A stretch of DNA of 64,000 nucleotides from the IMG/VR virus record IMGVR_UViG_2718218304_000001, positions 50,160-114,159 of that record. One strand, given 5' to 3'. The DNA is from a virus (taxonomy: Duplodnaviria; Heunggongvirae; Uroviricota; Caudoviricetes). How positions within the stretch are numbered: the stretch's first letter is position 1; the number at the start of each line of letters is the position of its first letter. A program made the position numbers and the translations under genes. The notes beneath the pieces are model-generated. The model was not told where the DNA came from, made no database searches, and saw only the letters and a program-made list of their open reading frames with translations. Shown piece by piece: positions 88 through 48,787 of this stretch.

Positions 88-234
88 TGGACTCCATCCA
101 GTGTCAGAAAGAGTTGCGGCTGGCGATCGCCAGCCGCCTTTCTCGTTCCATCCTGGAACTGTGTCTTACCGACACATTGTCATCCTGACGCTGATAAGAT
201 ACATGATTTAAAATGATAGGTAAACACTTACTTA

Positions 235-2422: not shown

Positions 2423-2488
2423 CTTCTTTCTCGATAGGTAAGTAAATACCTATTTTTGCATTTGATTTTATGTCTGGCAATCAAATAA

Positions 2489-6153: not shown

Positions 6154-7284
6154 TCACACCGCCACTGGAACCTTGATCCACGGTAGAGGGTCATAGCCAA
6201 GAATTAAAACCTCGTCCCATTTGAAATCATCCAACTCTGACCATTCATGAGGGAAAATAACGACCGGATCTGAATGCTCTGGAGCCTGTCGCTTCATTAG
6301 CTCACACACACCTTCCATGTGGTTGTTGTACAAATGCACGTCAAAGCCAAAATGCACAAATGCACCGGCCATGTGACCCGTAATCTTCGCGAGAAAATGA
6401 GTGAGAATGCCATAGCCAGCAATATTGAATGGCATACCAACAAAAGTGTCTACGCTACGCTGTACGAGGCAGGAGTTGAGGATGCGTTTGGGGATTCCAA
6501 GTTCATCCAGTTCAGCTTCAGTAACACTGCCGTCCATCTCCAGATCGTATAGCATCTTGGTGTAGATAGACTCGTAACCGAGGCGACTGTGTTGAAGACC
6601 AATGTCAGTTGCCATCGTTAAACGGGTTTCAAAATCCAGCTCACGACTCCACAAAGAGAAGACAAAGTGGCAAGGTGGCAGTTTCATATCCTCAAGCTCG
6701 CCTACGTTCCATGCGTTAAGCATGATGCGACGATCGGTAGGGTTCGTGCGCAGTGTATCGACAATACGCTGTAGCTGATCGATTTCACGGGACAGCACTA
6801 CGCGATCTTCACTGATACCCAGGTATCCCTCGACTTTGTACCCGCGTTCACGGAAAGTATCGATCTTGCTCAGATATTCACTATGGCTCACGATGCGGGT
6901 ATCTTCCCATCGACGCCACTGCTTACCGTAAACCGGCCCCAAATCGCCATTCTCATCGGCCCATGCATCCCAAATCTTAACGCCGTTATCCTTGAGAAAT
7001 TGGATGTTGCCCGTGCCTTTCAGATACCACTCAAGTTCGACAAGTAGTGGCTTAAGATTTACCGCCTTTCCAGAAATAAGCGGCACAGTCCCACCAGTAA
7101 GCATGTAGTAAGAGGGAACGTAGCAGGTGCTTAAAGTACCAGTGCCTGTGCGATCATCAGCCTGCACGCCGCTTTTAAGCACCGTCTCAATAACTTTTGC
7201 ATACGATGCGTTTGTTACCTGACCGTTCGTATGCTCACGATTCAAAAGGAGTGACACAAAAACCTCACAAAGATAAGTAACCAC
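6154..7284 (-). CDS. thyA: thymidylate synthase (ThyA type, extended)
   Basis: DRTGTGT, NAWN, LPPCH and DTFVGMPFNIA motifs; 376 aa, longer than bacterial ThyA; N-terminal start uncertain (ATG lies inside a palindromic motif). Confidence 0.85.
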   Translation of the reverse strand: MVTYLCEVFVSLLLNREHTNGQVTNASYAKVIETVLKSGVQADDRTGTGTLSTCYVPSYYMLTGGTVPLISGKAVNLKPLLVELEWYLKGTGNIQFLKDNGVKIWDAWADENGDLGPVYGKQWRRWEDTRIVSHSEYLSKIDTFRERGYKVEGYLGISEDRVVLSREIDQLQRIVDTLRTNPTDRRIMLNAWNVGELEDMKLPPCHFVFSLWSRELDFETRLTMATDIGLQHSRLGYESIYTKMLYDLEMDGSVTEAELDELGIPKRILNSCLVQRSVDTFVGMPFNIAGYGILTHFLAKITGHMAGAFVHFGFDVHLYNNHMEGVCELMKRQAPEHSDPVVIFPHEWSELDDFKWDEVLILGYDPLPWIKVPVAV

Positions 7285-7428
7285 TTATTCATTGCGTGAG
7301 TTTACATTTATTGAGAGAACAAGACCAGACAGATAAAAAAATGGTGGCCATAGGCCACCAAAAACGAATAGTTGTTTCAGAAATTTAACGCGCCAATGCA
7401 ATATACACAGATAGATAACTACCTACAA

Positions 7429-8298
7429 TTATTTTTTGAACATTCCGTACATTGCTGAGGCTTTAGCTTGCTCAACAAAGGAGGATAAATCGACATCACT
7501 ATAGGTTGGAGACTTCAGAATCTTTCCATCGGAAATTCGAAAACCGATCATCTTATCGGTGCCATCAGCATGGCGAAATCCCAGGTCAGAAGAGTCGTAT
7601 TTGCAGTTGGCCACAGCATGGCGACGCTCTTCGGCATCTGCAGGCCATAATTTTGTCATGTTGGACCGATGAATTTCGCCAACCAGCTCGACGACATTGA
7701 TACCGAGGAAATCAGCCAGTCGATAGGTCATCATGCACGCCACATAGATTTTGTTCATTACACGGCGCAGTTCCTGAATCAGTTCAGAATCCTTAACAGT
7801 CTTGTTCTCAAGTTTATCTGCCAGCTCTTCGAGCATATATGACGCCTCACGAGCTTCCTGAAATGGCATTGCCATATCATCGAAAACAGTGTTACCAGGC
7901 ACAAAAATTGTCTGCATAAAGCGATCAATGCTCTGTTCCTGCGTGTAATAGGTCATGCCGGTAGAAATACCACCTTTGATGGCGACCATCGTACCAACAC
8001 CAACGTATAAAAAGTCGGCCATTGCATCCAGCAGTTGCTCAATATCCCCATTCATTGCAGCTGGAATACCTTCCACTACAGCTTCTTCATGAATCAGGCT
8101 TGCACGGAGACGAAGCAGCTCTGGTGTCGGCATAACGCGTCTCGGATGCTGGAAGAGTTCATGAAACTGATCGACCATCTTGTAAATACTTTCAGTAGCT
8201 ACACCATGACCTTCATGCAACTCATATGGTTCTGGCTTAAATCCAATGAGACGATCGGTGGCAAGTTTCAGGTGGTCAGTCAGTTTGGTAAAGTTCAT
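7429..8298 (-). CDS. putative all-alpha NTP pyrophosphohydrolase (MazG-like)
   Basis: Two helical segments with E-rich motifs resembling MazG/HisE; sits with nucleotide-metabolism genes. Confidence 0.45.
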   Translation of the reverse strand: MNFTKLTDHLKLATDRLIGFKPEPYELHEGHGVATESIYKMVDQFHELFQHPRRVMPTPELLRLRASLIHEEAVVEGIPAAMNGDIEQLLDAMADFLYVGVGTMVAIKGGISTGMTYYTQEQSIDRFMQTIFVPGNTVFDDMAMPFQEAREASYMLEELADKLENKTVKDSELIQELRRVMNKIYVACMMTYRLADFLGINVVELVGEIHRSNMTKLWPADAEERRHAVANCKYDSSDLGFRHADGTDKMIGFRISDGKILKSPTYSDVDLSSFVEQAKASAMYGMFKK

Positions 8299-9518: not shown

Positions 9519-9624
9519 GTGTTTTTCCTTTTTCTTTTTTAGTGCGTTTAAACAAGTTGTTATCTTATGTGTTTAAACAAGGCTTACAAATCAAAGAGAA
9601 GGTGGGGATATCCCCCACCATATG

Positions 9625-11940: not shown

Positions 11941-12013
11941 GTATCACCAAATAAAGAGGGCCACTAAATATAGTGGCCCATGTTAATAGATAAGTACTTA
12001 CCTATCAATGAAA

Positions 12014-16557: not shown

Positions 16558-16811
16558 GTGTTTTTCCTTTGTGGTTATTTTGATACAAATTCTAAGAGCA
16601 ATGAGGAGGTAAACAACTATGCATAACGGTATGTTAGGAATGAAACGAGCGCCTTAATATACAAAATTTATAAGTAAGTATATACCTATTTATCGTGGCG
16701 CAACTTTGCTTGTCTGTATGACTAAAAATAAGACAGGATCACTGTAGAACGCTATGAGAGCTATTTTGAGGGGGCGTAGATTCTATCTACGCCAATATAC
16801 GATCTGGAGGG

Positions 16812-17654: not shown

Positions 17655-17760
17655 TGTATGCTGTCAGCGGTAATTGATAGTCTGTCAGCGGTTCACCGTA
17701 TGCTGCCAACTGTTTTTGGTATTCTGTCAGCGGCAAATCAAGTATGCTGTCAGCGGTTGA
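17655..17760. repeat. iteron array (5 copies, ~21-bp phasing) upstream of repA; candidate origin
   Basis: Repeats of (G)TATGCTGTCAGCGGT and variants at about 17657, 17678, 17699, 17722, 17743. Confidence 0.8.
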
Positions 17761-17777
17761 ATGACAAAGGTGTCCAC

Positions 17778-18872
17778 ATGTCCACAAAAAATAAAAAAGG
17801 TAAAAATAACAAAGAAGTAGAAGATAATCTCGACAACTTTGAAGAAGGTTCCCTTGAATTGTACACAGGGGAACTTGTCCCTAATAGCAACAATACAGTC
17901 CAACCAATTGCGTTGATGCGGCTGGGATTGTTCGTGCCCACGCTCAAGGGGACAAAATACAGCAAGCGTAACAAGCCAAATGAGATCGATGCTTCAAAGG
18001 AGCTTGTCCAGCTCGAAGTAGCCCGTTCTGAAGGCTATTCCGATATCAAGATAACCGGTCCTCGTCTCGACATGGATCATGATTTCAAAACGTGGGTGGG
18101 CGTTGTGCGTTCGCTGGCAGAATACGGCGAACCTAATGGTCGTGTCGAGTTAAGCATCACGAAATTTGCGAAGTTTTGTGGCTATCCATCGTCACAGATC
18201 CGCAAAACACTCCGCGACCGGCTTACAAACAGTCTTTTGAAGATCATGCGTACAACTCTGTCTTTCCAGAGAACGTATGAAGAAAAGAACGTCGACGGCT
18301 CTAACAAGATCTCGCTTCTGATGGTGCACCTCATCAATAGCGTGGACTACAACGAGCAGAAAGATACGGTGGTGTTCTATGCAGAACCGAAGCTGGCCGA
18401 ACTATATCGCTTTGACCATAAGGTTCTTTTGCAGTTAAAGGTTATCAATAAGCTACCACGCAAAGAAACAGCACAGGCTCTGTACACCTTCATCGAAAGT
18501 CTTCCAACCAAGCCTGCGCCGGTATCGCTTGCTCGATTGCGTGCGCGACTCAATTTGAGTAGCAGGAATGTCAGCTCGCAGAATCAGACTATACGTAACG
18601 GCTTAAAAGCTCTCCAAGATTTGGGCTATCTCGAATACAGCGAGATTAAGCGTGGGCGGTCGATCTATATCCAGATTCACAGCCGCAATCCAAAACTTAA
18701 AGTCGCACCGCCAAAACCTGAAGACATCGAACCCAAAAAACCAGATGAGAAAGCCGGGGAAATTGATGCTAAACAGAACATTATCAACAAGATAACTGAA
18801 CTTTCGCAGAATTTGACGCCTGAAAATATCAAGATGATTGAGATCCTTTCCAATAGTCTCAAACTGCTTTGA
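17778..18872 (+). CDS. repA: plasmid-type replication initiator (RepA-like, iteron-binding)
   Basis: Track ORF 17658..18872 overlaps the iterons; ATG at 17778 (MSTKNKKGK...) is the likely start; gene is bracketed by iteron arrays as in P1-type replicons. Confidence 0.65.
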   Translation: MSTKNKKGKNNKEVEDNLDNFEEGSLELYTGELVPNSNNTVQPIALMRLGLFVPTLKGTKYSKRNKPNEIDASKELVQLEVARSEGYSDIKITGPRLDMDHDFKTWVGVVRSLAEYGEPNGRVELSITKFAKFCGYPSSQIRKTLRDRLTNSLLKIMRTTLSFQRTYEEKNVDGSNKISLLMVHLINSVDYNEQKDTVVFYAEPKLAELYRFDHKVLLQLKVINKLPRKETAQALYTFIESLPTKPAPVSLARLRARLNLSSRNVSSQNQTIRNGLKALQDLGYLEYSEIKRGRSIYIQIHSRNPKLKVAPPKPEDIEPKKPDEKAGEIDAKQNIINKITELSQNLTPENIKMIEILSNSLKLL

Positions 18873-19999: not shown

Positions 20000-20175
20000 G
20001 CTGCCACCTCTTTGATTACATCAAATGCTGAATTAAATACGAGCACGATAGCCAAAGCGTTTATGACTACGTCGTTCACCGGGGAAAAGACTTTACGAAT
20101 GACACCGGTGAAAATGCAGTCGATGACAAAAGCTATTGAAACGATGAGTAACAAGTATTCAATAAAAATCTTCAT
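19996..20175 (-). CDS. small hydrophobic membrane protein (59 aa)
   Basis: Hand-found ORF (MKIFIEYLLLIVSIAFVIDCIF...) below the 60-aa track cutoff; stop overlaps the next start (ATGA). Confidence 0.35.
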   Translation of the reverse strand: MKIFIEYLLLIVSIAFVIDCIFTGVIRKVFSPVNDVVINALAIVLVFNSAFDVIKEVAA

Positions 20176-20214
20176 GATAGGTAGATACTAACTTATATAA
20201 ATTTTACTATAAAC

Positions 20215-20490: not shown

Positions 20491-20545
20491 GTGTTTTTCC
20501 TTTTGTGGTTAGTGTTTACTTATTTTGTTAGTTATGAATAGGCGA

Positions 20546-20971: not shown

Positions 20972-21050
20972 GTTTTCTTATCCTTTTAAACAAATTGTTT
21001 TCTTAATAAGATAATTGCGATAAAAAAGGCGTCCTGTGGACGCCTTGTGT

Positions 21051-25692: not shown

Positions 25693-25809
25693 GTGTTTCT
25701 CCTTGTTGTGATTTGGCCGATGGCGCTATGCGCGTTGGGCTTTCGTTCATTCGTGGCTCTTTCGAGCTGTTAAATGATAGATCAGCACTTACTTATTATC
25801 TATCAAAAA

Positions 25810-26241: not shown

Positions 26242-26449
26242 TCTAATAGGTTCCTACTTATAAAATCTGTATCAATTATATCAAACAGAGAACGGGTTTA
26301 TGGCGTCATGTCAACTTTGTTCAGGGGAAAATATTGAGATCACCGAAGATAATTAGTTGTCTTATTTTGGTAAGCTGTGCTGACCATCTTTAGGTCACAT
26401 ACATGAGATGGATGGGGGTGTGGCATGAACGGATGAAATTCAGTCGCCG

Positions 26450-27344: not shown

Positions 27345-27673
27345 TGATGCCCGCCAATTGGCGGGCATCTGTTCTCTGTAAAGGTGTCTGGCATCGTCTG
27401 GTTCGTTAACGTTTACTAAACCAATGGTGACAAAAATTAGTTATCTTTGAAAAATAAAGGTTGCATGAAAAGAAGGGGTATGCGTTAATAGCATCGTTGG
27501 TTTGCAAGACAGACCTTATGTAAGCAGTTTTAGTAAAGCAGTCTCAGTTCAGTGTTATCTTCTGATTTCCCTTCTTCGTGAGTCTCCTCCTTAAGTGCCT
27601 AAGTAAGTCCCAATCTATACAGATCAAATTCTCGCCGCACTATGTGGCTCACAAAATTAAGAAGGTAATATCT

Positions 27674-27889
27674 ATGTCTAATAAAATGACTGGTTTAGTA
27701 AAATGGTTTAACTCTGATAAAGGCTTTGGCTTTATTTCTCCTGCTGATGGCAGTAAAGATGTTTTTGTACATTTTTCGGCAATTCAGAGTAATAATTTCC
27801 GCACTTTGGAAGAAGGCCAGCAGGTCGAATTCTCTATCGAGAATGGGGCTAAAGGCCCAGCAGCAGCAAATGTCGTTGCTCTAAGCTGA
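27674..27889 (+). CDS. cold-shock protein (CspA family)
   Basis: [23 protein letters not shown]...[12 protein letters not shown]1/RNP2 motifs of the CspA family; ~71 aa; long 5' leader upstream. Confidence 0.85.
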
Positions 27890-28168
27890 TTCAACGCTGA
27901 TGATCCTCATTTCTACAATAACGAAGACGGTGTAAGCCTGAGTGGATAGATTTGTAGGATTGTACAAGTTGAATAAATTAGCATGGTAAGGCCATGCTAA
28001 TTAAATCGACACAACGGCCAGTTTATTCCATAAAAGTGAATTGCCCATTGTGGCGAAATGCGGGGTTGCCGCATGAATAGTCAAAGGCAGAAGCTAACTG
28101 CCGGCATGGCAAAACAAAGTGCGTAAGAGGAGTGACTTCCTCAACAAGCGCCATAATTCTTTATAAAC

Positions 28169-39044: not shown

Positions 39045-39822
39045 AATTCAGCACTGCCAGTATTTATTACTCAACAGTGCCAATCGCGACGGTTTAGTTT
39101 CTGCCAGGAAACGCACCGCTACTTGCACTTTTCGTTAGTGCCAGACGCTTTCGACTTCGCTCAATAGTAGAAGGCAAAATCTTTAAGTAGATGATGTTTC
39201 TGAGGACAGCACCTACTTTGTAATTTATACAATGTGATGTATGGAATCATTTGTTGTGAAAACAGGCACCAATGGCAACAGTGGTTAAACCTACACAACA
39301 ATCCTGTCTTCACAACGTTGAGGCCACTACTCCGATTGAATGTTTGCCCAACATGTTACATATCAACGCTCGCCGGTATCTCTGTGAATAGAACCTTAGA
39401 ATTGATAAAAATGTAATGGCCTCAACGTTGTGTGCTGGCTAACCATACCAGCCGGGCTACGTCGCCGCTTTTTAACCCAGTATAAACGACATAATTGAAC
39501 AAAATGACGTAACAGGATGGGCGGTCAGTGGCTAAGAATCCGGGAGTCATATGGAGTTGAAAATATACCAACCGCCCATTCTGTTACTTCATCGGAGGGA
39601 ACATGAATGTTCCCTCCTGCGTTCTGCAATCACACTCGCTCAGTGTGTCCCATTTCGGTAACGAGGCTGGAAACTGACCTCGCTGGTGTTTGGCTTATTA
39701 GGCTACTGCCAGATAGACTTCTTCGTTTGCACTTGTATTTAAGTTCAAACAGTCGCGTCTCAACGAAAACAAAGTCATCTTATACATAAAAGATAAGTAA
39801 GTAAATACTTATCACCATGTTT

Positions 39823-42303: not shown

Positions 42304-42383
42304 GCTTCTAACCGTAATCTTGTACTTACTTATTAATCGCAGTTTAAAGAAGCCCCACGAGGGGCTAAATGTTTTATCGAGGC

Positions 42384-43196: not shown

Positions 43197-43259
43197 AGCA
43201 ACTCCTGACTAACAGATGAAAGTATTCTTTCAGAAAAATAAGTAAGTATCTACTTATTA

Positions 43260-43737
43260 TATCGGGCGCAATAGTCTGCTATACGAAGAAGCCAGGCGTA
43301 AAAACCACTCGGATGCACATCCAGCACCCGACAAAGCAGTCGGACAGGCCAGCAATGGGTGTTGTCACGGATAAAGGCGTACCTCAGTCGGACAGCTTTG
43401 CGAAGTACGCCGCGCTTTTTTTAATATGTCCCGTTCGTCGGTAACCCGCTTCAGCTCTTTCTGGAGACGGCGGATCTCGGCCTGAGCATCTGACTGTTCT
43501 TTATTAGTGGAAGAATCCGGACCGTACTTCTTTATCCAGGAGTAAAGGCTGTGGGTGGTGATATCGAGACGTGTTGCAACGCTGGCAACAGAATAACCGC
43601 GATCAACAACCTGTTTGACTGCTTCAATTTTTAAACTCTTCGGGATAACGCTTACCGCTCATGGGCACCTCTCTTTAAGTCATCTTAAATGACTCTGAGG
43701 TGTCTATTAAACCTGTGGCGATTCAATACACTAAATC
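43260..43737 (-). mobile_element. IS3-family insertion sequence remnant (left end + orfA + first ~30 codons of orfB; 3' part missing)
   Basis: orfA-like frame (MSGKRYPEEFK...ILKKAAAYFAKLSD) and orfB N-terminus (...CRVLDVHPSGFYAWL...) on the minus strand, ending abruptly at the backbone palindromic motif. Confidence 0.65.
43384..43662 (-). pseudogene. IS3-family transposase orfA, frameshifted
   Basis: ATG at about 43662; an A5 run after codon 12 gives a premature stop, while removing one A restores a ~92-aa OrfA-like HTH protein. Confidence 0.6.
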
Positions 43738-43883: not shown

Positions 43884-44856
43884 AACCATGGAAAACGAGC
43901 TGCTGAAAGAAGCCGTTGAATATGGCCGACAAAAAAAGTGGATAGCGCACGTGCCCTTGTTGCCGGAGGATGGTGAATGAGCCTTGTCAGTCGTTGCCTC
44001 CGGGTCTCACGTGCGCAACTGCATGCCATGGCCCGTCGGTCGAAGGGCTGGCAGGATCGTCGGTGCAAGCGCAAGCCTGATGATACTGAAGCGCTGGCTC
44101 GTATCCATACCGTTATCGACGATCTGCCCACCTATGGTTATCGTCGTGTATGGGTACTGCTGCGCAGACAATCAGAAACTGACGACATGGCGGTGATCAA
44201 TGCCAAACGCGTATACCGCATCATGCGTCAGAATGCGCTGCTGCTTGAGCGTAAACCGGCAATACCGCCCTCGAAGCGGGCGCATAGAGGGAAAGTGGCC
44301 GTTGGAGAAAGTAACCAGCGGTGGTGCTCCGACGGCTTCGGGTTCAGCTGTGATAACGGTGAAAAACTGCGGATCACGTTCGCGCTGGACTGTTGCGAGC
44401 GCGAGGCACTTCACTGGGCAGCAAGTACCGGTGGATATGACAGTGAAACCGTGCAGGACGTCATGCTGGGTGCAGTAGAGCGTCGCTTCGGTAACAGGCT
44501 GCCGACATCCCCCGTTGAGTGGCTGACAGACAACGGTTCAGCCTACCGTTCTCATCAGACGCGTCAGTTCGCCAGAATGGTAGGACTGGAGCCAAAACAT
44601 ACGGCGGTACGTAGTCCAGAAAGCAACGGAATGGCGGAGAGCTTCGTGAAAACGATGAAGCGCGACTACATCAGTATCATGCCAAAACCTGACGGGTTAA
44701 CAGCGGCAAAGAACCTTGCGGAGGCCTTCGAACATTACAACGAATGGCATCCGCACAGTGCACTGGGATATCGTTCTCCACGGGAATATCTGCGGCGGCG
44801 AACCAGTAATGGGTTAAGCGATAAAAAGTGTCTGGAAATATAGGGGCCAATCCACA
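43884..44856 (+). mobile_element. IS2-like element, 5'-truncated (last ~30 codons of orfA, complete orfB, right inverted repeat)
   Basis: orfA C-terminus [39 protein letters not shown] matches my recollection of IS2 InsC; right end ...TATAGGGGCCAATCCA. Confidence 0.8.
43977..44843 (+). CDS. insD: IS2-like transposase OrfB (InsD-like, DDE integrase core)
   Basis: 288 aa, highly similar to IS2 InsD as I recall it (..YGYRRVW..LRRQ..; DDE/RNase H-fold core). Confidence 0.85.
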
Positions 44857-44984
44857 TGGAAATGTTTTTGATTAAAATAAAAAATATTCTTTTATATTGC
44901 TCTATCATTTTTATTTTTAGTAATTTATTAGCAAGAGATTGCGATCTCTTTTTTAGTTAAAGCAAATTAGTTAAGGATTAGTCT

Positions 44985-45536
44985 ATGAAACGTTCAATTA
45001 TTGCGGCTACTGTATTAGCATCTCTTTTTATGAGCGCAGGATCATTTGCAGCAGAAGGGAGTACAGAGGGTCAGTTAACTATTAACGGTAAAGTCACAGA
45101 GACTACATGTCAGTTCCTGAGCGGTAGTGAGAATACAACAATTTCGATGAGCGAAATTGGTCGTGATCAATTTGAAAATGTAGAAGTTGGCTCCCCCGTT
45201 ACCACTTATTCAAATACAACATCTTTACCACTAAAAGTTAAATGTCCCGGAGAAAAAAAACCAAGAATTACCTTCTCCAGCACCCAATTTGAAGGAACGG
45301 GTTCAAATGTTACTCGCAATACTGGTGATGCTAGCGGTGTCGGTTTCGCTGTTTTTTTGGGGAAAGGTACTGATTCTAGCAAGCGGATTTCTGGTAATAG
45401 TCCTATTGAGTTAACATCAGCTACTAATAATGGTGAATATGAGTTGCATTTTACGGCGCAATACGCAAAAGCAGCTGATGATGTGAGTACTGGCGAAGTT
45501 AGTTCTGCGATAACAATGACCGTTGTAACAGATTAA
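44985..45536 (+). CDS. fimbrial major subunit (chaperone-usher pilin)
   Basis: Signal peptide MKRSIIAATVLASLFMSAGSFA; conserved Cys pair (TCQF...KVKCPG); ~160-aa mature pilin-like protein. Confidence 0.8.
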   Translation: MKRSIIAATVLASLFMSAGSFAAEGSTEGQLTINGKVTETTCQFLSGSENTTISMSEIGRDQFENVEVGSPVTTYSNTTSLPLKVKCPGEKKPRITFSSTQFEGTGSNVTRNTGDASGVGFAVFLGKGTDSSKRISGNSPIELTSATNNGEYELHFTAQYAKAADDVSTGEVSSAITMTVVTD

Positions 45537-45591
45537 CATGATGTTTATCGGCGGCTTCGGTCGCCGATTTTCAATCGCAAGGATTGTTATC

Positions 45592-46272
45592 ATGAAAAAA
45601 TTAATAGCCTTCTTACTAACCGTAACGGTCCCATCTGCGTGGGGCGGTGTCTATATTTACGGCACTCGCGTTATTTATCCGGAACAGAAAAAAGAGATTG
45701 CAGTTCAGTTAATGAATGAAGGTGAGCGTAGTGCTCTTGTTCAGTCGTGGATTGATGATGGCGATGCCAGCCTTCCTCCGGAAAAGATTAGTGTACCTTT
45801 TGTGCTGACTCCACCGGTAGTTCATGTTAGTAAGGGTGAAGGACAGCAACTGAAAATTAAACAACTGGCGAACACTCTACCTAAAGATCGCGAAAGTCTG
45901 TTCTTCCTTAATGTACTGGATATTCCACCTAATAGTGAGAAATACGAAGGCAAGAATCTGATTAAATTCGCGATGCAAAATCGTATCAAATTTATTTATC
46001 GCCCAAAAGGTATAACAAGAGTCGATAAAGAGAGTTTTTCCCGGATTAATATCAGACCCGTTGATAGAGGCATTAACATAAAAAATAATTCAGCGAACTG
46101 GATAACCATTCCTGAATTAACCGGGAATGCGAAAATTAATAAGGAGACACTACTGCTGGCACCCTGGTCAGATCAGACTGTCAAAACGACATCCGTTGTT
46201 AACTATTACAATGTTACTCTGATTGATGATCATGGAAACTATTTGAGTGAAAAAATAAAAACTGCTAAATAG
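45592..46272 (+). CDS. periplasmic fimbrial chaperone (PapD/FimC-like)
   Basis: Track ORF 45538..46272; ATG at 45592 with AAGGA SD and signal peptide MKKLIAFLLTVTVPSAWG; PapD-like motifs (IYPE, LVQSWID, NRIKFIYRP). Confidence 0.85.
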   Translation: MKKLIAFLLTVTVPSAWGGVYIYGTRVIYPEQKKEIAVQLMNEGERSALVQSWIDDGDASLPPEKISVPFVLTPPVVHVSKGEGQQLKIKQLANTLPKDRESLFFLNVLDIPPNSEKYEGKNLIKFAMQNRIKFIYRPKGITRVDKESFSRINIRPVDRGINIKNNSANWITIPELTGNAKINKETLLLAPWSDQTVKTTSVVNYYNVTLIDDHGNYLSEKIKTAK

Positions 46273-46289
46273 ATTAGCAGGGATTGGTT

Positions 46290-48776
46290 ATGTCAAAGTT
46301 TAATTCTATTACACTGGCTATTCTGTCAGTATTAGCGACTTCGCATACATGGGCTAAGGGTGAAACGTTTAATACCAATTTTATGATTGGTGGTTTAAAT
46401 GGGGAGAAAATTTCTAACTACCATATTGATAGTGATAAGCCGATGCCGGGTATCTACGCTATGGATGTTTATCTGAATAATCAATGGCGTGGCCACTATG
46501 ATATTGATATTAAAGATGACCCTAATGCAACATGTTTATCCATGGAGCAATTAAAGCAAATTGGGATCCTCACTGAAGGAATTAGTATCGATAAAGGCGT
46601 AGAATGTGTACCACTTCGGGATGCTGTCCAGGGAGGCAGCGTCGACTATGATATTGGGCATTTTAACCTAAAATTAAGCGTGCCCCAAGCCTATGTTCTG
46701 AAATATGAACATGGCTATATTCCGCCTGAAGCATGGGATCGCGGGATTAACGCATTATATACATCTTATTATGCCAGTCAGTATTACAGTGATTATAAAA
46801 ACGGCGGAGATGATAAAAGTAGCTATCTAAATCTGAACAGTGGGTTAAATCTCCTGGGCTGGCAGCTGCATTCAAATGCCAATTATACGAAAAGCGACGA
46901 AAACAGCGGTAAATGGAAGAGTAACACGCTATATCTGGAACGTGGAATTCCACAAATTCTCGGCACGTTTCGCGCAGGTGAAATGTATACTGGTTCTGAT
47001 GTTTTTGACTCCGTGCGTTTTCGCGGCGTGCGCCTTTGGCGCGATATGCAGATGTTACCGAACTCTAAACAGAATTTTACTCCTGTGGTACGCGGCGTTG
47101 CCCAGAGTAACGCACTCGTCACCATAGAACAAAATGGTTTTGTGGTTTACCAGAAAGAAGTACCGCCAGGCCCATTCGCCATTGATGATTTGCAACTTTC
47201 TAATGGTGGGGCAGATTTGGAAGTTATCGTCAAAGAAGCTGATGGTTCAACGTCGTACTATCGGGTGCCTTATTCATCGGTGCCAAATATGTTGCAACCT
47301 GGCGTTTCTAAATATGAATTTTCAGCCGGACGTAGTCATATTGAAGGAGCCAGCAATCAATCTGATTTTATCCAGGGAAGCTATAAGCATGGTTTCAACA
47401 ATTTGCTGACAGGTTATGGCGGCACGCTGTTATCTGATAATTACTCATCGTTTGTTCTTGGAACAGGATGGAATACACCGATTGGTGCTATATCGGTTGA
47501 TTTTACCCATTCATACAGCAAGCAAGACAACGGTGATGTGTTTAACGGTCAAAGTTATCAGATTGCCTGGAATAAATATCTCTCTCAGAGCGGAACACAA
47601 TTTTCTCTGGCGGCCTGGCGTTATTCCTCTCGGGGTTATCGTACTTTTAACGATCATGTATGGGCAAATAACAAAAATAGATACAATCGAGAAGACAACT
47701 CAGGCTATGACATTGCCAACTACTACCAGTATGATTTTGGTCGCAAGAATAGCTTTTCTTTAAATATCAACCAGTCATTACCGGAAAATTGGGGGTATCT
47801 GGCGATCAGCGGTCAATGGCGAGATTACTGGGAACGTAGCGGGACAGGGAAAAATTACCAACTAAGCTATACGAACTCATGGGAACGTCTAAGTTATACC
47901 TTGTCGGTTAGCCAGACATACGATGAGGATAACAGCGAAGACAGACGCATTAACTTATTTTTCTCAATCCCCTTCTCGTGGCGTGATAATATCACCGAAA
48001 AACGACGAGATTTATTTATCTCTAACTCGACCACATTTGATAAAGACGGCTACCAGTCAAATACTACCAGCCTCAGTGGTGTAGCTGGGAACCGTGATCA
48101 GTTCAGCTACGGGGCTAACTTTAGCCATCAACAACAGGACAGCGAAGCAACAGCAGGTGGAAATCTGATTTGGCGTGCGCCAGTGGCTACCATTGGTGGC
48201 AGCTATAGCCAGTCGAAAAAATATCAACAGATAAGTGGTAATATTCAAGGTGGTTTAGTCGCGTGGTCAGACGGGATAGCACTGGCTCCCAGACTTTCAG
48301 ATACATTTACCATCGTCCATGCTCCGGGGCTGGATGGGGCTGCGGTACAGGGGTATCGTTACCTGAGCACGGATAGCCGAGGTTACGCTATTTATGACAG
48401 CCTGACGCCGTATCGTAAAAACACGTTGATGCTGGATACTTCTGACAGTCAAAGCGATGTGGCACTACTGGGCAACCGTAAAAGCACCGCTCCTTATCGT
48501 GGGGCCGTTGTGATGACGCAGTTTGATACTGACAAACGTAAACCCTGGTATTTCCTTGCTCAGCGCCCGGATGGTTCTCCATTATCGTTCGGTTATGAAG
48601 TTGAAGATGAAAGCGGTAAGAATGTGGGCTTGGTAGGACAGGGAAGTCGGATATTTATTCGCACTGATGATGTTCCCGCATCGATTCGCGTCTCGGTTAA
48701 TAAACAGCAGGAAAAATTCTGTACTATTACCTTTGATAACGTTATTGATGAGAATAAAGTTTATATTTGTCGTTAA
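46290..48776 (+). CDS. outer-membrane fimbrial usher (FimD/PapC-like)
   Basis: ~830 aa, signal peptide, usher-like sequence throughout, C-terminal Cys pair; track start 46284 is TTG, ATG at 46290. Confidence 0.85.
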   Translation: MSKFNSITLAILSVLATSHTWAKGETFNTNFMIGGLNGEKISNYHIDSDKPMPGIYAMDVYLNNQWRGHYDIDIKDDPNATCLSMEQLKQIGILTEGISIDKGVECVPLRDAVQGGSVDYDIGHFNLKLSVPQAYVLKYEHGYIPPEAWDRGINALYTSYYASQYYSDYKNGGDDKSSYLNLNSGLNLLGWQLHSNANYTKSDENSGKWKSNTLYLERGIPQILGTFRAGEMYTGSDVFDSVRFRGVRLWRDMQMLPNSKQNFTPVVRGVAQSNALVTIEQNGFVVYQKEVPPGPFAIDDLQLSNGGADLEVIVKEADGSTSYYRVPYSSVPNMLQPGVSKYEFSAGRSHIEGASNQSDFIQGSYKHGFNNLLTGYGGTLLSDNYSSFVLGTGWNTPIGAISVDFTHSYSKQDNGDVFNGQSYQIAWNKYLSQSGTQFSLAAWRYSSRGYRTFNDHVWANNKNRYNREDNSGYDIANYYQYDFGRKNSFSLNINQSLPENWGYLAISGQWRDYWERSGTGKNYQLSYTNSWERLSYTLSVSQTYDEDNSEDRRINLFFSIPFSWRDNITEKRRDLFISNSTTFDKDGYQSNTTSLSGVAGNRDQFSYGANFSHQQQDSEATAGGNLIWRAPVATIGGSYSQSKKYQQISGNIQGGLVAWSDGIALAPRLSDTFTIVHAPGLDGAAVQGYRYLSTDSRGYAIYDSLTPYRKNTLMLDTSDSQSDVALLGNRKSTAPYRGAVVMTQFDTDKRKPWYFLAQRPDGSPLSFGYEVEDESGKNVGLVGQGSRIFIRTDDVPASIRVSVNKQQEKFCTITFDNVIDENKVYICR

Positions 48777-48787
48777 AGGATTTGTTT

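Follow-up and report, generated by a model that had tools for sequence, protein, structure and literature searches.

The window analysed here, a stretch of 64,000 nucleotides of phage DNA, is dotted with copies of a short palindrome, which raises the question of what these copies do and which factor reads them. The original prediction described an imperfect palindrome of ~20 bp at 12 or more intergenic sites, mostly 10–50 nt upstream of minus-strand start codons. It offered two readings, an operator for a dimeric regulator, comparable to the dispersed C1 operators of P1, or a phage-specific promoter element.

By megablast, the window belongs to an SSU5-type phage-plasmid (SSU5/pHCM2 type). Sequence identity of the window is 98% with Escherichia phage Cyrano (OV696614, the plasmid prophage pLF82) and ~77% with both Salmonella phage SSU5 and phage-plasmids of Klebsiella. 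Positions 1–64000 run antiparallel to Cyrano, from ~79885 down to 22501, with a divergent RepA region and one insertion specific to the window, and almost every gene is encoded on the minus strand. Yersinia pestis pMT1 has the same backbone (TerL 96% identity), and more remote relatives are present in PLSDB (TerL 53–60% identity). SSU5-type phage-plasmids are frequent in clinical E. coli, Klebsiella, Enterobacter and Salmonella and include pHCM2 of S. Typhi; another member, pECOH89, carries CTX-M-15.

The copy at 2434–2453 reads ATAGGTAAGTAAATACCTAT, as first stated. Alignment of the listed sites reveals a core, TARGTANNTACYTA, which is a constant unit TARGTA-NN-TACYTA inside RR...YY flanks. 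The formula given originally is to be refined accordingly: the constant unit is this core, with arms that follow a 4-bp period (TAAG-TAAG-TA). Because the arms repeat with this period, matches are often paired 4 bp apart. The central NN carries no information in the weight matrix and is the least conserved part of the motif. In its fullest forms, the motif extends to the perfect 20-mer ATAGGTAAGT.ACTTACCTAT and to TAAGTAAGTA-NN-TACTTACTTA. Some sites have an additional half-site, which can lie on either side of the core with respect to transcription. A separate "P-type" operator, GTAAG-NN-CTTAC, was considered and dropped, as it is the same site in another register.

The motif is far more frequent in the window than expected. 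The exact core occurs 8 times against 0.01 expected, which rises to 16 against 0.27 with up to one mismatch and to 31 against 4.9 with up to two. Likewise, TAAGTAAGTA with up to one mismatch is found in 18 copies, where 2.9 are expected. A symmetric 22-bp weight matrix (PWM) scores 31 segments at 10 bits or more, compared with 1.9 in shuffled sequences. Enrichment beyond base composition, intergenic placement of all strong sites and the conservation described below together show that the dispersed palindrome, at 12 or more intergenic places, is real.

All 14 coordinates listed at the outset hold the motif or a degenerate copy of it. The copy at 42318–42338 falls below 10 bits, and its status as a site is unsupported. 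The copy reported in the loop of the 54240–54300 hairpin is present but weak (11.9 bits), as is the one at 1390–1415 (11.9 bits). Five further sites, at 1772–1793, 7408–7429, 20505–20526, 26243–26264 and 35831–35852, were absent from that list. Altogether the window contains ~16 motif sites, of ~27 in a whole genome. The placement 10–50 nt ahead of minus-strand start codons applies to about half of them: the distance to the next such codon is at most 50 nt in 9 of the 18 cases measured and ranges overall from 2 to 154 nt. Many sites are in fact nearer to the upstream stop codon than to the next start.

How the sites (which we call motif A and to which no strand is assigned) are positioned relative to promoters was assessed from three-way alignments of Cyrano, SSU5 and the Klebsiella plasmid pJN2-26, with promoters predicted from sequence. 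Three arrangements emerge. In the first, a -10-like box is followed by the palindrome at ~+5 to +25 and then by the ribosome-binding site. This is the case at Dam, g31 and ParB in all three genomes. The Dam methylase site (2435..2456; PWM 26.2 bits), which has orthologous sites in the other genomes, lies 16 nt upstream of the start codon and overlaps, from ~-7, a predicted TG-extended promoter TTGCCA-17-AAAAAT. The promoter-like match runs from 2480 to 2452 on the minus strand, and in the consensus scan it ends on the first base of the site. The g31 site (54132..54153; 25.3 bits) lies 13 nt upstream of the start of g31, in the helicase-primase block; a conserved -10 (TATGAT/TATCAT) precedes it. 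The ThyX site (7270..7291), 16 nt upstream of the start codon, follows the same arrangement with a -10-like TAAACT box in Cyrano and SSU5 only; the box is unmatched in pJN2-26.

In the second arrangement, the core is followed by a conserved TG-extended -10, with a gap of 12–15 nt at CobS, SbcD, Ead, g34, g83 and the tRNA leader. Here, the site in the CobT/CobS gap (33175..33196; 23.4 bits) is followed, 13 nt past the core, by a conserved TATATT, and the site upstream of SbcD (16671..16692; 26.5 bits) by a conserved TG-extended -10 at ~13 nt. The site after g39, where the non-coding stretch toward the tRNA cluster begins (39794..39815; 24.4 bits), is followed by TG-TATAAG at 13 nt, and the site 46 nt upstream of the g34 start (43239..43260; 26.3 bits) by a conserved TG-TAAGAAT. 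Other gaps occur at the site upstream of the holin gene and at the one after MazG. The former (58880..58901; 22.2 bits) has a gap of 21 nt, shares bases with the stop codon of the preceding ORF and has a conserved TGATATAAA 18 nt downstream of its core. The latter (7408..7429; 18.1 bits) directly follows the MazG stop codon, with a conserved TATATT 6 nt on.

In the third arrangement, no promoter is visible, and the site contains a stop codon or precedes a terminator-like hairpin, as at TerL/portal, MCP, tailM/L and NrdA. The site in the RuvC/NrdA gap (11987..12008; 26.3 bits), whose orthologous gap was compared, is followed by a terminator-like hairpin at 11979–11958; it also occupies the spacer of a predicted promoter, TTGATA-17-TAACAT. 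Further promoter-less copies touch stop codons at tailJ/fiber and RNaseH/g83. The latter (213..234; 23.2 bits) is kept in Cyrano, SSU5 and pJN2-26, and the g83 start is 130 nt away. At least as many sites overlap conserved, predicted -10/-35-like elements, namely at Dam, NrdA, SbcD, CobS, g31, holin and others. The remaining sites of the window are found 2 nt from the g60 start (20174..20195; 22.0 bits), 18 nt upstream of the g59 start (20505..20526; a weaker copy of 16.5 bits with an orthologue in Cyrano), 32 nt upstream of the UvsY start (26243..26264; 18.2 bits) and in the UvsY/SSB gap (25778..25799). The last is degenerate (14.8 bits) but real, with TAAGTAAGTACTGATCTA kept in the orthologous gap of three genomes. 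Overall, the core can precede the -10 by up to 21 nt or follow it by up to ~17 nt. A scan for sigma-70 consensus promoters showed no enrichment over shuffled sequences, so that single promoter calls carry little weight. This mixed geometry fits repression by occlusion and roadblock, and not an activator site or a promoter element.

The motif and the positions of its sites are conserved between phage-plasmids from different host genera. The complete Cyrano genome has 27 matrix sites, 26 of which lie in the 13% of the sequence that is non-coding. Six are located in the late structural operon (TerL/portal, MCP, Tc1/tail, tailM/L, tailJ/fibre and fibre/holin), and many lie 0–30 nt past the upstream stop codon or contain it. 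With the same consensus, 27 sites are found in SSU5, 28 in Klebsiella pJN2-26 and 26 in NZ_CP055187.1, a more distant Klebsiella plasmid (portal 72% identity). Direct alignment of Cyrano, SSU5 and pJN2-26 places the sites at the same junctions, with the palindrome kept and the flanks diverged.

Whether the symmetry serves DNA or RNA was assessed on 102 sites from four genomes. An intergenic mRNA hairpin for processing, stability or translational control would suit the many copies that lie in 5′ leaders near the ribosome-binding site or just past stop codons. The palindrome can indeed fold, as the predicted 30-mer hairpins have a mean z-score of -2.3 against shuffles. Their mean stability, however, is a mere -4.6 kcal/mol. 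Symmetric position pairs are complementary in 571 of 816 cases, and the mismatched ones on the sense strand comprise 88 G.U against 99 A.C (p=0.46), which amounts to no strand bias. In addition, the would-be loop is the least conserved part, what is kept is the sequence and not pairing through compensatory change, and an Rfam search found no family at any site. A role in RNA is thus very unlikely. Given the lack of G.U/A.C asymmetry, the weak hairpins, the unconserved loop and the half-site on either side, the symmetry belongs to double-stranded DNA, which fits a dimeric protein. The second of the original readings, a phage-specific promoter element for an RNA polymerase that is modified or phage-directed, draws on the sites that mark the starts of units jumping in macrophages (g12, g34, g56 and g60) and on one Acinetobacter relative that encodes a sigma factor of the sigma-70 family. 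This sigma factor has no homologue in the enteric elements, which removes it as a candidate reader. A palindrome without fixed orientation, 2–154 nt from the start codon and on either side of the -10, hardly behaves as a promoter element, and some copies lack a promoter altogether or lie immediately upstream of terminators (MCP, tailM/L and NrdA). We consider this reading equally improbable.

More distant relatives indicate where the reader is encoded. In a de novo enumeration of palindromes, the Cyrano motif was recovered as the positive control. The Acinetobacter baumannii element acin1 carries a different dispersed palindrome, TAGTAAGC.GCTTACTA (TAGTAAGCGCTTACTA). Of its 36 matches at up to 4 mismatches, 30 are intergenic, at comparable junctions. 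In acin2, likewise an A. baumannii element, there are 24 copies of AGTCAGT-NN-TGACTGA, of which 22 are intergenic. Judged from these sequences, dispersed lineage-specific palindromes are an ancient trait of this phage-plasmid superfamily. Since two elements of one host species carry different motifs, we infer that the motif is read by a factor encoded by the element and not by the host. The same observation argues against host factors, among which the RcsAB box, the UvrY/GacA box, the SlmA site and the NarL heptamers were considered and set aside. The acin2 motif, TCAGT-N4-ACTGA, shares the architecture of the enteric TAAGT-N4-ACTTA (T[A/C]AGT-N4-ACT[T/G]A), whereas the spacing differs in acin1. 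Across ~44 backbone proteins, including both ParB-like proteins and TerS, acin1 and acin2 are mutual nearest relatives. The repressor of acin2, on the other hand, scores 83 bits to its enteric counterpart and 63 bits to that of acin1. Motif and repressor are both enteric-like in acin2 and may thus co-vary, in a comparison that covers two Acinetobacter elements and in which the putative recognition helix of g123, another candidate regulator, shows a similar pattern.

This repressor is encoded at 35882..36268 on the plus strand, adjoining the integrase gene. It is an Xre-type helix-turn-helix (HTH) protein homologous to CYRAN_45 and the proposed binder of motif A. It matches PHROG 8, "transcriptional regulator" (1e-11), and, below threshold, Pfam HTH_19 (18.9 bits against a cutoff of 30.2); a PDB sequence search found no relative with a solved structure. 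Homologues of CYRAN_45, always beside the integrase, are present in 959 plasmids, including pHCM2 and pMT1, and their host distribution mirrors that of TerL. E. coli, S. Typhi and Y. pestis share the HTH segment GYKNANNLSLIKSGKIPLP, the putative recognition helix, without any change, and Klebsiella has it nearly unchanged. Overall, the enteric alleles compared are 48–66% identical, and alleles with the unchanged segment only 65%. In both Acinetobacter lineages the segment differs.

The predicted repressor promoter, P_rep (35808..35850, plus strand), consists of a -35 TTTACA (35808–35813), a 16-nt spacer and a -10 TAATAT (35830–35835). At its ~+1 lies a degenerate motif A palindrome, GGTAAGCACTTACC (35837–35850; matrix segment 35831–35852, PWM 13.2–17.4). 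Among E. coli, S. Typhi pHCM2, Y. pestis pMT1 and Klebsiella, no part of the switch region is better conserved than this block. In the four lineages, the palindrome GGTAAG-YA-CTTACC represents the same 20-mer in degenerate form; 16 of 20 positions match in Klebsiella and 14 of 20 in E. coli, where the copy is weak (13 bits). NZ_CP055187.1 has two tandem motif copies, 31 bp apart, beside the repressor gene. We propose that the P_rep palindrome is an autoregulatory operator. SSU5 lacks the integrase-repressor module, yet has 27 good sites. As SSU5 is described as virulent (PMC5427195), its sites are best explained as relics from before the repressor was recently lost. An earlier decision to set CYRAN_45 aside for its absence from SSU5 was reversed on account of that description and of the gene's presence in the 959 plasmids.

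Published transcriptomes of Cyrano lysogens (PMC9928086, supplementary table) provide a view of expression. In the lysogen, nearly all lytic genes are at background, g37, g123 and ParB-119/120 are silent, and CYRAN_45, annotated as "putative repressor", and g117 are at ~10 times background (PMC9928086). In macrophage samples, where SOS is induced, the repressor mRNA rises ~10-fold together with the site-proximal genes g12, g56 and g60-62 (PMC9928086 data). Of all Cyrano genes, g60-62 are the most strongly induced (log2 2.3 to 8.6). In macrophages, genes directly past a site jump and the neighbours ahead of the site do not, so that levels go from log2 5.9 in g11 to 8.4 in g12, from 4.05 in g55 to 7.65 in g56 and from 4.95 in g59 to 8.6 in g60. 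Site-bearing junctions go both ways, with a drop from ~log2 10 in g30 to ~4 in g31. This pattern fits one factor controlling P_rep and the dispersed sites, as a correlation that is confounded by terminators and by intergenic position in general.

We therefore lean toward a model in which the palindromes are operators of the element's own dimeric repressor, most likely the HTH protein encoded at 35882–36268, and hold this to be somewhat better than an even chance. Its expression in the lysogen, its constant HTH segment, the motif at P_rep, its spread among plasmids and the likeness of acin2 single out this repressor as the probable binder. In the plasmid (lysogenic) state, the repressor would occupy the ~16 sites of the window, or ~27 per genome, and silence ~25 gene blocks. 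Where a site lies over a sigma-70 promoter (in the -35/spacer region, or at ~-7 to +25), bound repressor would block RNA polymerase. The promoter-less copies on or beside stop codons in long operons would probably act as roadblocks or as extra anchoring sites, and the weaker copy at +1 of P_rep would bring about negative autoregulation. An operator for a dimeric regulator, as suggested originally, is supported by the DNA-level symmetry, the half-sites on two sides, the variable distance to the -10, the copy at the repressor promoter and the change between lineages. That a protein binds the motif, that this protein is the HTH repressor and that its binding represses transcription is what we infer. 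The model has its difficulties, since a rigid dimer should not accommodate the 4-bp register variants of the site, and since the recognition helix of g123 shows the same acin2-like-enteric pattern, which speaks against an exclusive co-variation. Further points against it are the weakness of the P_rep copy in E. coli, the assumption of a recent loss that SSU5 demands, the expression jumps in both directions at site-bearing junctions and the sigma-70 scan at the level of shuffled sequences.

The strongest rival is another regulator of the element that acts in the lytic cycle, such as the 88-aa winged-helix protein CYRAN_123 (g123), which is encoded outside the window, just upstream of TerS. It could be a timing repressor or an activator of -35-less promoters. 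Between enteric elements with the motif, the protein keeps 78–89% identity, its putative recognition helix in acin2 is nearer to the enteric form than to that of acin1, and a motif copy lies ahead of its operon, 22 nt upstream of ParB-119. At six promoters a TG-extended -10 follows the core by ~12–15 nt and a good -35 is absent, and g123 mRNA is up in the same macrophage samples as the site-proximal genes. Against this, in the lysogen the site-bearing promoters are silent and g123 does not exceed background; moreover, sites downstream of the -10 (Dam, ThyX, g31 and ParB) or without a promoter cannot be activator sites. Its sole Pfam match is below threshold, and the whole protein follows the backbone (61.6 bits between acin1 and acin2, 48.5 bits between Cyrano and acin2). 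We regard it as an unlikely alternative to the HTH repressor. Least probable of all are loading or silencing sites for ParB-like proteins, or targets of a host DNA-binding protein. The element does encode two proteins with a ParB_N domain, the first of them behind the site just mentioned, and KorB of RK2, a member of the ParB family, has twelve dispersed palindromic OB operators, some far from promoters. In the lysogen, the ParB-like proteins of the present element are silent, and their variation does not track the motif; they follow the backbone phylogeny (56% identity between acin1 and acin2, 36–38% to Cyrano). TerS and the ParB-like proteins were rejected as binders on phylogeny and expression. 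Two more candidates were discarded. The putative ribbon-helix-helix protein g117 is expressed in the lysogen, but among elements with the motif its putative DNA-reading strand varies, and a tblastn search of NZ_CP055187.1 found no homologue. The other, g37, is silent in the lysogen, and 5 of the 12 records of SSU5-like phages lack it. Searches of Pfam and PHROGs assigned no function to g37, g117 or g123.

Extending the preferred model of HTH repressor operators, we tentatively envisage, as a possibility that we rate rather below even, that the whole SSU5/pHCM2/pMT1/pKpn/Acinetobacter superfamily might be run by a two-code silencing system. Its first code would be the ~27 repressor operators, some of them stop-fused roadblocks in late operons, and its second another palindrome, AAACAA-N-TTGTTT, at ~+1 of a separate class of promoters. 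The recognition helix would be frozen by its ~27 sites while the rest of the repressor drifts. New immunity types might then arise when every site undergoes a symmetric change of one base and the repressor allele is exchanged along with it, as in acin2 TCAGT-N4-ACTGA versus enteric TAAGT-N4-ACTTA.

The literature searched contains no description of this motif or of operators in SSU5, pHCM2 or phage-plasmids, and no account of plasmid-state silencing or of the lytic switch in SSU5-type elements; full-text matches to the motif string are unrelated. The Cyrano paper makes no mention of either an operator or a motif, and a preprint on phage-plasmid heteroresistance concerns an unrelated family. 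What the present analysis yields is a map of candidate operators, a named candidate repressor and the motif variants of several lineages. With these, immunity groups, induction and superinfection exclusion of the SSU5 family become testable, and a starting point for reporter and engineering work is available.

By analogy, the motif most likely represents a previously undescribed set within the known logic of dispersed repressor operators, as exemplified by P1 C1 and the stoperators. In Cluster A mycobacteriophages, the stoperators (bound by L5 gp71) comprise 20–30 repressor sites across the genome, including the structural operons, and most lie outside promoters (PMC6550527). Heteroimmune lineages differ in the stoperator consensus, which varies along with the repressor (PMC6550527). 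The SSU5-type motif resembles them with its 26–28 sites per genome, its several promoter-less copies at gene junctions and its lineage-specific versions. Stoperators, however, are 13–14 bp long, without dyad symmetry, bound non-cooperatively and oriented with transcription (PMC6550527). In contrast, the SSU5-type motif is a dyad-symmetric 14–20-mer without orientation bias, and the repressors are unrelated as far as tested.

The comparison with P1 drawn at the outset holds for the logic and not for the family. In P1, a plasmid prophage is silenced by one repressor at many operators spread over a ~100-kb genome. The SSU5-type elements likewise combine many scattered sites and a proposed single repressor with a plasmid prophage. 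The C1 operators, however, are asymmetric 17-mers (ATTGCTCTAATAAATTT) with a sequence unrelated to that of motif A, and the repressor proposed here is a small Xre-type HTH protein. The SOS repressor LexA recognises a box with the consensus CTGT-N8-ACAG, and the site sequences contain no CTG...CAG arms. Closer in symmetry are the CIRs of the Streptomyces phage phiC31, ~17-bp dyad-symmetric repeats that are bound by the repressor at many intergenic loci and concentrated near early promoters. Like motif A, they are dyad-symmetric intergenic repeats of a temperate phage. They differ in phage group, host and motif, and, unlike them, motif A extends into the late structural operon with the six sites of Cyrano.

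A second dispersed palindrome, (ATAAGA)AAACAA-N-TTGTTT, occurs independently of the main motif, the ~20-bp palindrome with the core TARGTA-NN-TACYTA proposed as a repressor operator. Across the whole Cyrano genome it has 18 sites at ≤1 mismatch, as against 0.45 in shuffled sequence, and within the window it lies at 9550-9562, 20988-21000, 35339-35351, 53356-53368 and 56288-56300. The sites are placed in intergenic gaps that lack the main motif (those of TerS, ParA, the helicase, CobT, NrdB and several small genes in a row). Because a -10-like element, gATAATtA, stands ~10 nt upstream and an ATG follows 11-40 nt downstream, this second palindrome resembles an operator serving a distinct class of promoters.

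At one main-motif site (window 20173-20195), the g60 ORF begins only 2 nt past the site, leaving no space for a Shine-Dalgarno sequence. Despite this, no Cyrano genes are induced more strongly in macrophages than g60-62, whose expression there rises from 2.3 to 8.6 (log2).

Several main-motif sites have a hairpin directly downstream. Past the NrdA site, a terminator-like hairpin (window 11958-11979, minus strand) separates the predicted promoter from the start codon. A further hairpin follows the main-motif site at the Tc1/tail junction (L002:9040-9065; Cyrano, SSU5 and Klebsiella), and its stem varies in sequence while pairing is kept in the three genomes. A long hairpin, CCTGCTTCYGTATATAT...ATATACRGAAGCAGG, is present in two copies (window ~1750-1810 and ~54235-54300), one in the gap between Dam and g80 and the other upstream of g31, and each carries, within its AT-rich loop, a weak match to the main motif. 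Upstream of g31, at the position of the second copy, Cyrano expression falls ~60-fold.

The replication initiator (window 17658-18872, plus strand), which carries a Rep3_N domain, is only ~50% identical to Cyrano RepA, whereas the flanking DNA is 98% identical, which points to a swapped replicon module. The stretch at 27496-27914 of the window (plus strand) matches the cspA thermoregulator RNA family at full length (RF01766, 186 bits), which implies that the phage-plasmid carries a cold-shock protein gene together with its regulatory leader.

Cargo missing from Cyrano occupies 43977-50590 of the window. A transposase of the IS3 family lies at 43977-44843. The chaperone-usher fimbrial operon at 44985-49807 encodes a subunit, a PapD chaperone, an usher and a further fimbrial protein, and a member of the Fic/Doc family is encoded at 50213-50590. 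The transposase and fimbrial ORFs matched no defence model in PADLOC; for the Fic/Doc ORF, PADLOC gave weak matches to candidate systems (PDC-M59B, 1.3e-07).

Outside the window, the distantly related Acinetobacter plasmid NZ_CP082891.1 encodes a sigma-70-family sigma factor between a CobS-like gene and dnaE (L010:17898-18563), a homologue of which is absent from the enteric elements. Cyrano CYRAN_114 (L003:20381-20902), also outside the window, is a full-length match to FljA, the phase-1 flagellin repressor family (Pfam Flag1_repress, 1e-80). It may offer the element a route to affect host flagellin expression, and the protein is kept in SSU5 and the Klebsiella elements.
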